DNA from: Eledone cirrhosa
Lineage: Eukaryota
Length of the DNA stretch: 64,000 bases
NCBI GenBank assembly: GCA_964016885.1
Contig: OZ024742.1
Coordinates: 128,340,001-128,404,000, forward strand
Reading direction: 5' to 3'
The position numbers were made by a program, and so were the translations under genes. Positions 51,836 to 51,938 of the stretch are shown here, piece by piece. The notes below the pieces were generated by a model. The model did not search any database and had not been told where the DNA came from. It worked only from the letters and a program-made list of their open reading frames with translations. Each line of letters begins with the position of its first letter. Position 1 is the stretch's first letter.

Positions 51836-51938
51836 TGTCCCAACGACTTTTTTTAGCCGTTGCTCGCACCAACCTGAGGTATATGGCCTTTAATGCGACG
51901 AAATGCCTCCGACGGTTGGAAGGCCACTGATGAGGACA
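51836..51938 (+). ncRNA. Hammerhead-like motif with reversed strand order, copy A
   Basis: gaggta-TA-tggcctt (51876-90), GAAA-tgcctc (51900-09), aaggcca-CTGATGA-ggaca (51920-38). Confidence 0.65.

Follow-up and report, generated by a model that had tools for sequence, protein, structure and literature searches.

Eckert et al. 2023 (PMC10085705) split the hammerhead ribozyme into three blocks, S, G and C, and reported types SGC and CSG. According to the accessible text of that paper, type SGC comprises 583 sequences, occurs only in metatranscriptomes and cleaves in vitro at 0.007-0.19 per min; its forms were analysed as acting in cis, and co-transcriptional cleavage is reported for them. The alignment of type CSG consists of two soil-DNA sequences, and the CSG and GCS descriptors require stem II directly behind the core. 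Non-circular hammerheads are described there only from unassigned metatranscriptome and soil contigs, with unbroken blocks assumed. The accessible part of PMC13725137 only cites this work. A 2026 preprint on animal non-LTR retrozymes (bioRxiv 10.64898/2026.07.22.740005), in its accessible text, searches with type I models alone and does not mention an SGC form.

A second system relevant here is the Naiad group of Penelope-like elements (PLEs), described by Craig et al. 2021 (PMC8557442) as occurring in partial tandems and as inverted 5'-truncated copies, with a tail at one end and (TA)n targets. No canonical hammerhead is reported for Naiads in the accessible text, which carries only the annotations "HHR_core" or "HHR_half_core" and mentions eight cases with the second core half 35-50 nt away on either side.

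The ribozyme motif in the window

The DNA analysed here, called the window below, is a stretch of 64,000 nucleotides of the Eledone cirrhosa genome (contig OZ024742.1). A descriptor that requires only CUGANGA, GAAA, a UH site and stems I and III gave four S-G-C sites in the window (51879-51933 and 60952-61012 on the plus strand, 51241-51187 and 52657-52605 on the minus strand) and no match in 50 shuffles of it. The original prediction, made from the letters of the window, had described a hammerhead with its strands in the reverse cyclic order S1-S3-S2; this order is correct, and the strands quoted for it are all present at the positions given. It had also been thought possibly undescribed, which does not hold, as S1-S3-S2 is the published type SGC (PMC10085705), known to cleave in vitro. 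The canonical type I, II and III orders (CGS, GSC and SCG) are not found at the motif, and the descriptor for type CSG had no match in the window. An Rfam scan of the window region at E up to 10 gave no hammerhead, bearing out the expectation that type I-III models would miss the motif.

A fifth, partial copy was found by profile search, so that the five copies originally counted are all there; of these, none but the two family-A twins is intact. The inverted twin has the majority sequence of the family. In the family B copy, which had been proposed for an in vitro test, a deletion has removed most of helix I and left 2 bp. Coordinates of all copies and of the parts of the family A motif are given in Table 1. 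An assembly artefact as the origin of the motif is ruled out by 754 exact copies on many contigs.

Table 1. Positions in the window of the ribozyme copies, the parts of the family A motif and the carrier units
Feature	Position	Strand	Remarks
Candidate four-way-junction type-SGC hammerhead, family A copy	51836..51938	+	strands, core and upstream stem II checked
P1 5' strand	51836..51840	+	partner 51934-51938, directly behind CUGAUGA; open-ended helix
P2 hairpin	51841..51862	+	second added arm of four-way junction
Stem II 5' strand	51864..51868	+	partner 51894-51898; displaced upstream of cleavage block
Helix I 5' strand	51869..51874	+	partner 51914-51919; ties far ends of stems I and II
Predicted kink-turn, non-bulged strand (3n, 2n, 1n)	51875..51877	+	bulged strand 51908-51913
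Block S	51878..51889	+	stem III 5' strand, U16.1-A17, stem I 5' strand; predicted cut after 51883
Block G	51894..51907	+	stem II 3' strand, N11.1, GAAA, stem III 3' strand
Block C	51920..51933	+	stem I 3' strand, then CUGAUGA
Inverted family A twin	51131..51468	-	has ~50-nt tail; ribozyme 51284-51182; predicted cut after 51237
Family A unit, 5'-truncated, tail-less	51465..51949	+	ends in (AT)n
Family B ribozyme copy	52596..52703	-	AUC site, predicted cut after 52653; unit end 52539 in (TA)n
Family E ribozyme copy	60908..61017	+	degenerate: poly-C expansion, shortened P1
Partial upstream family E copy	60366..60439	+	575 nt before next site; core mutated

Fold and covariation

The fold is organised around a four-way junction of P1, the hairpin P2, stem II and the core, most families having an extra 10.1-11.1 position in between. 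The unbroken block C of type SGC, in which CUGAnGA is followed by the stem II strand, is absent. A classical stem II reaches only 0-1 bp in 15 of 16 cases, and in 16 of 16 the partner strand of stem II lies upstream. The earlier statement that there is no ordinary stem II is thus half right: the helix seen just before GAAA is itself stem II, whose partner strand has been displaced to an upstream position. A helix that had been missed, helix I, pairs 51869-74 with 51914-19; it is placed after the 5' strand of stem II and before the 3' strand of stem I and ties the far ends of both, while the linker 51890-93 joins stem I to stem II. Stem III has 5 bp instead of the 7 bp first proposed, as the longer form needs a private change at 51909 that occurs in one of 55 family-A copies, the common bulge being kept in 52 of them. 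The pairing map as read from the sequence would be that of type SGC opened inside block C.

The helices were examined in an alignment of 18 genomic rows spanning families A, B, E and F and a few singletons, taken from a larger pool of first-look candidates (1613 for family A, 2375 for B, 1388 for E and 3408 for F, with 40 scored per family). Over the five helices, 96.1% of 557 cells are paired, compared with 29-45% in slid controls, and two-sided changes are found in 20 of the 31 pairs; none of 500 shuffles reached these values. This bears out the covarying helices of the original prediction; as the rows are related, the covariation within this one genome rests on about eight related subfamilies. 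By helix, such changes occur in five of eight pairs of P2, three of five of stem II, five of six of helix I, five of seven of stem I and two of five of stem III; one row is 5'-truncated, and its hairpin columns consist of TA repeat and give no evidence there. P1 has at least 4 bp in 107 of 135 copies, its letters differing among families A/B, F and E. The core CUGANGA, GAAA and the UH site are invariant or nearly so in the 18 rows, and at H17 all but two of 137 copies have A or C (135). Energy minimisation of family A yields as its best fold a rival structure in which the 3' strand of P2 takes up the strand of helix I (-29.0 kcal/mol, against -19.1 kcal/mol for the model's nested pairs, with two crossing helices still to be added; z -0.89); the rival is similar in strength to the model.

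The hinge between helix I and stem III

Kink-turns follow the rule of a 3-nt bulge and then G.A and A.G pairs (PMC5061560), and the loop between helix I and stem III fits it. Each of A1n, G1b and A2b is retained by 134 of the 137 copies, the 3-nt bulge varying by family; G2n is present in 104 of 137, and U stands at 2n in all 23 family-E copies. We take the hinges of families B and F to read like box C/D turns. By published rules (PMC4382518), the family A hinge (3b = C) would be expected to fold with ions alone, and the U.U hinges of families B and F to depend on a protein. The family E hinge has A.U at 2b.2n, as does Kt-23 of Thermus thermophilus (PMC2790904). A natural hammerhead with a kink-turn hinge was not found among the papers listed in our literature search.

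In known hammerheads stem III stacks on stem II (PMC10085705); helix I can therefore contact the two of them only by bending back. By a rough distance estimate, a kink of 50 degrees would let the monomer close, and the hinge would favour a monomer for the family in this genome.

Carrier repeats and other elements in the window

The motif is carried near the 3' end of non-coding Penelope-like repeats of 530-620 nt that are inserted in (TA)n. Tandem units are present, with periods of 621, 532, 551 and 575 nt; no coding frame was recognised in the units, whose 3' end takes one of two fixed positions, ~70 or 120 nt past the motif. Insertions have lost their 5' part and end in (TA)n; many are tandem, and in many cases an inverted copy missing the final 50 nt stands in front. 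An inverted/direct pair of this kind occupies 51131-51949 of the window. Family A copies are 96-99% alike, and the family is young. Of its copies, 754 read through the site and five begin at the predicted cut, and insertion 5' ends are not enriched there (five junctions, against five at a control TATA). This test of 5' ends gives no direct support for cleavage. No remnant of a Naiad reverse transcriptase (RT) was found adjoining the ribozyme loci.

Several other mobile elements are seen in the window. A fragment of a young Penelope-like element with a C-terminal endonuclease lies at 41620-43030 on the minus strand; the family counts 44,048 candidates, with intact frames of 713 aa at other places. 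By eye, its repeat end contains a sequence resembling a hammerhead in canonical order, with CAGAAGA as its core, and such a sequence also occurs near 24770-24850 on the minus strand. This element was tried as the source of the S-G-C motif and rejected, since 30 of its loci lack the motif. Long perfect inverted repeats at 48360-48466 and 59950-60215 contain hammerhead-like cores in canonical order, as is typical of PLE ends of the fold-back kind. Frames for RT, endonuclease and restriction-like endonuclease at 61540-62470 (-), 31670-32750 (+), 35760-37700 (-), 6000-8070 (-) and 43150-46170 (-) are presumably fragments of other non-LTR retrotransposons.

Ribozymes behind the RT gene of Naiads

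The accessible set of 54 published Naiad consensi was read by eye from CUGANGA matches, so that motifs split by line ends would escape. The four-way SGC fold is seen in nine of the 54 (three from Acropora, two from Octopus and four placed by file position) and probably in two more; a further two have an SGC motif with another stem II, and six nematode consensi carry type CSG. The remaining consensi had no match, or one that could not be assigned to a fold. At the ends of four bivalve consensi and one fish consensus in this set no core was seen by eye. As a separate observation, other motifs are conserved on the 5' and on the 3' side among bivalve, hemichordate and fish consensi.

A decayed Naiad of this genome, found by its DKA motif, was used as query for relatives. 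A word-indexed protein search gave none, and the full HMMER search gave elements with N-terminal GIY-YIG, CxC, DKA and C-terminal RT; the best 80 of 318 loci form the metagenomic set, in which 70 of 80 have a sense 3' flank of at least 150 nt. A strict scan of the 3' flanks behind the RT of these 80 loci gave eight SGC, three CSG and no canonical orders, with no antisense hit and about 0.1 hits per order in shuffles. Inspection by eye added four SGC, one CSG and one partial CSG, bringing the four-way fold to 12 of the best 80. Each of the 12 has a stem II of 5-6 Watson-Crick pairs with an upstream strand, a P1 of 4-9 and a helix I of 6-11 pairs; a hairpin stands between P1 and stem II in 11 of them, classical stem II has 0-1 bp in 11, and the layout was matched by none of 200 shuffles in each of the 12 cases. 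On a quick, midpoint-rooted RT tree, with two genomic rows on long branches, CSG lies in one clade, four-way SGC in two groups, and a clade of 44 rows has no core; ribozyme type appears to follow the RT tree.

Type CSG behind Naiad RT genes was noticed at five loci of one RT clade (L294, L306, L326, L333 and L321). By eye, the two published soil CSG sequences, as far as they are accessible, share the layout of these Naiad motifs and may come from animal Naiads. Two Naiads, L277 and L288, have no hammerhead core and carry a twister-P5-like motif in the 3' flank; the one in the sister Naiad L277 (3014-3073) has E 1e-4 in a scan of 121 nt and that in L288 (995-1053) has E 8.3, both from small scans and below the Rfam gathering score. 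In 20 Naiad loci, Rfam models gave no match with E up to 0.05. Structured 3' flanks are seen in L269, L285 and L286, and L265, L268, L269 and L278 have a 5' leader motif in common that looks structured and stands ahead of the Naiad frame.

The decayed Naiad of this genome (L211, L125, L137 and relatives) also has an S-G-C motif in its 3' UTR, further 3' than a first stretch in which no ribozyme was found. Its stem III is paired in 51 of 60 cells and its stem I in 63 of 69, the UUGAUAA core amounts to a U3-A8 pair with both letters changed in compensation, and between blocks S and G lies a stem II of hairpin type, as in one of the accessible published Naiad consensi. Owing to this core and this stem II, it is not the direct parent of the window families. 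The Naiad RT matches listed for this genome (150 of 3220 candidates scored) are short or broken, and no autonomous element with the exact four-way form was found in it. The motif of the Octopus Naiad consensus had no matches in this genome, and that of a coral Naiad had 42 in viral contigs, none with a core behind it. The fold of the carriers recurs in other Naiads; at the DNA level, no match between the carriers and a Naiad of this genome was found.

Proposed mechanism and alternatives

We consider it probable that the motif is a self-cleaving, non-circularly permuted hammerhead that serves as the 3' ribozyme of one Naiad branch and is carried here on non-coding derivatives. In the proposed model the blocks follow each other as S-G-C, with block C cut such that CUGAUGA leads into the open helix P1 and the stem II strand is found 5' of the predicted cut. 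The junction is the meeting point of P1, P2, stem II and the core, the far ends of stems I and II would be clamped by helix I and the 3-4 nt linker, and the kink-turn would fold helix I back along stem III, so that a single molecule could fold. By analogy with known hammerheads, the cut is expected after the AUA ending at 51883. Tandem or read-through transcripts would thus be cut to RNAs of unit length (621, 532, 551 or 575 nt), which a Penelope-type RT may copy, primed at (TA)n ~120 nt past the cut and proceeding backwards across a site that is either uncut or re-joined in a circle. The 754 read-through copies, set against five that start at the site, indicate that the template usually has its site intact, either joined in a circle or uncut.

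The same helices and the same chemistry could also operate in a dimer, in which the loop of one copy, with its stem I and stem II strands, pairs with the flanks of another, for example the next tandem unit, and helix I and stem III form a straight spacer. Minimal PLE hammerheads cleave as dimers, the carrier units occur in tandem, and covariation is blind to pairing in cis or in trans; moreover, in some of the accessible published Naiad consensi helix I and stem III look, by eye, like one almost continuous rod, interrupted on one side by a bulge of 1-7 nt, which would be hard for a monomer. Against this stand the kink-turn signature kept at the hinge in this genome, the bulge, internal loop or inserted hairpin that the metagenomic cases keep there (by eye), and the co-transcriptional cleavage of the SGC forms that the accessible text of PMC10085705 analyses as cis; we regard the dimer as unlikely. 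It appears more doubtful still that the motif is a real, selected 3'-end structure of Naiads whose copies here cut slowly or not at all, acting mainly as an RT docking site or silenced by the rival fold. The read-through of 754 copies, the lack of enrichment of 5' ends at the site, the strength of the rival fold in family A and the 44-row Naiad clade that thrives without a detectable core would all agree with such a role, but the catalytic letters and H17 are fixed while the helices change, and the unrelated twister-like motif in the 3' flank of the sister element points to cutting as the selected job.

A third alternative concerns the mover and leaves the ribozyme active: the carriers may now be mobilised by the young C-terminal-endonuclease Penelope clade, without a Naiad RT. 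The copies of family A are 96-99% alike, those matches to a Naiad RT that were found are broken, and the C-terminal-endonuclease family, with its intact 713-aa frames and 44,048 candidates, follows (TA)n. On the other side, its loci L091-L120 contain no S-G-C motif, and an intact, distant Naiad may have escaped a search made with one decayed query and 150 of 3220 candidates scored. We see this as a possible but rather unlikely course of events. Returning to the Naiad ribozyme proposed above, a wider reading, which taken as a whole we consider about as likely as not, is that the connectivity is an active one outside the six block permutations, a long-missed ribozyme of a Naiad branch in several animal phyla with CSG and twister replacing it elsewhere, and that the monomer forms through a box C/D-like kink-turn at which an L7Ae-family protein (Snu13) could gate cleavage and hence the processing of retrotransposon RNA.

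If the fold cleaves, non-circular hammerheads would be abundant in animal genomes, surveys of ribozymes would be systematically blind to such forms, and part of the Naiad tree would have maintained a self-cleaving RNA at the 3' end while exchanging one form of it for another. The motif would join two open ends in the accessible literature, namely non-circular hammerheads without a source (PMC10085705) and Naiads reported without a canonical hammerhead (PMC8557442), and it offers a compact natural test of how a catalytic core is rewired by a four-way junction and a kink-turn.

Comparison with known systems

The S-G-C order is already known and shown to cleave (PMC10085705), the one paper in which our search met the term "Type-SGC". 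The split stem II with its four-way junction, the kink-turn-like hinge, the occurrence in an animal genome and the link to Naiads were not found in print; the search, with subscription journals mostly outside its scope, gave no paper linking SGC or CSG hammerheads with Naiads or with animal genomes, and none describing the junction.

The closest described system is type SGC (HRIMA-1 and its variant, PMC10085705), with which the motif shares the S-G-C order, the full core, a short linker between stems I and II and an extra helix that ties these two stems, here helix I, which is connected differently. In the published SGC forms, as far as they are accessible, stem II lies between blocks G and C and nothing stands upstream of S, whereas here block C is split and P1, P2, the four-way junction and the kink-turn-like hinge are added, and the motif is found in an animal genome and in DNA retroelements. 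It would, by analogy, work like a type-SGC hammerhead but lacks the unbroken blocks of that type. Type CSG (PMC10085705) belongs to the same reverse cyclic class and differs in its order, C-S-G, and its ordinary stem II. Compared with known kink-turns (PMC5061560, PMC4382518, PMC2790904), the motif here is placed inside a hammerhead as a hinge.

The carriers resemble Naiads (PMC8557442) in their tandem and inverted truncated insertions, the tail at one end and the (TA)n target, and differ from them in encoding no protein and in a tail of ~50 nt instead of 30-40 bp. With the non-LTR retrozymes (bioRxiv 10.64898/2026.07.22.740005) they share non-coding tandem units, one hammerhead per unit and a proposed derivation from PLEs; the retrozymes, however, are defined in the accessible text by type I hammerheads, and the hammerhead described here is not of type I.
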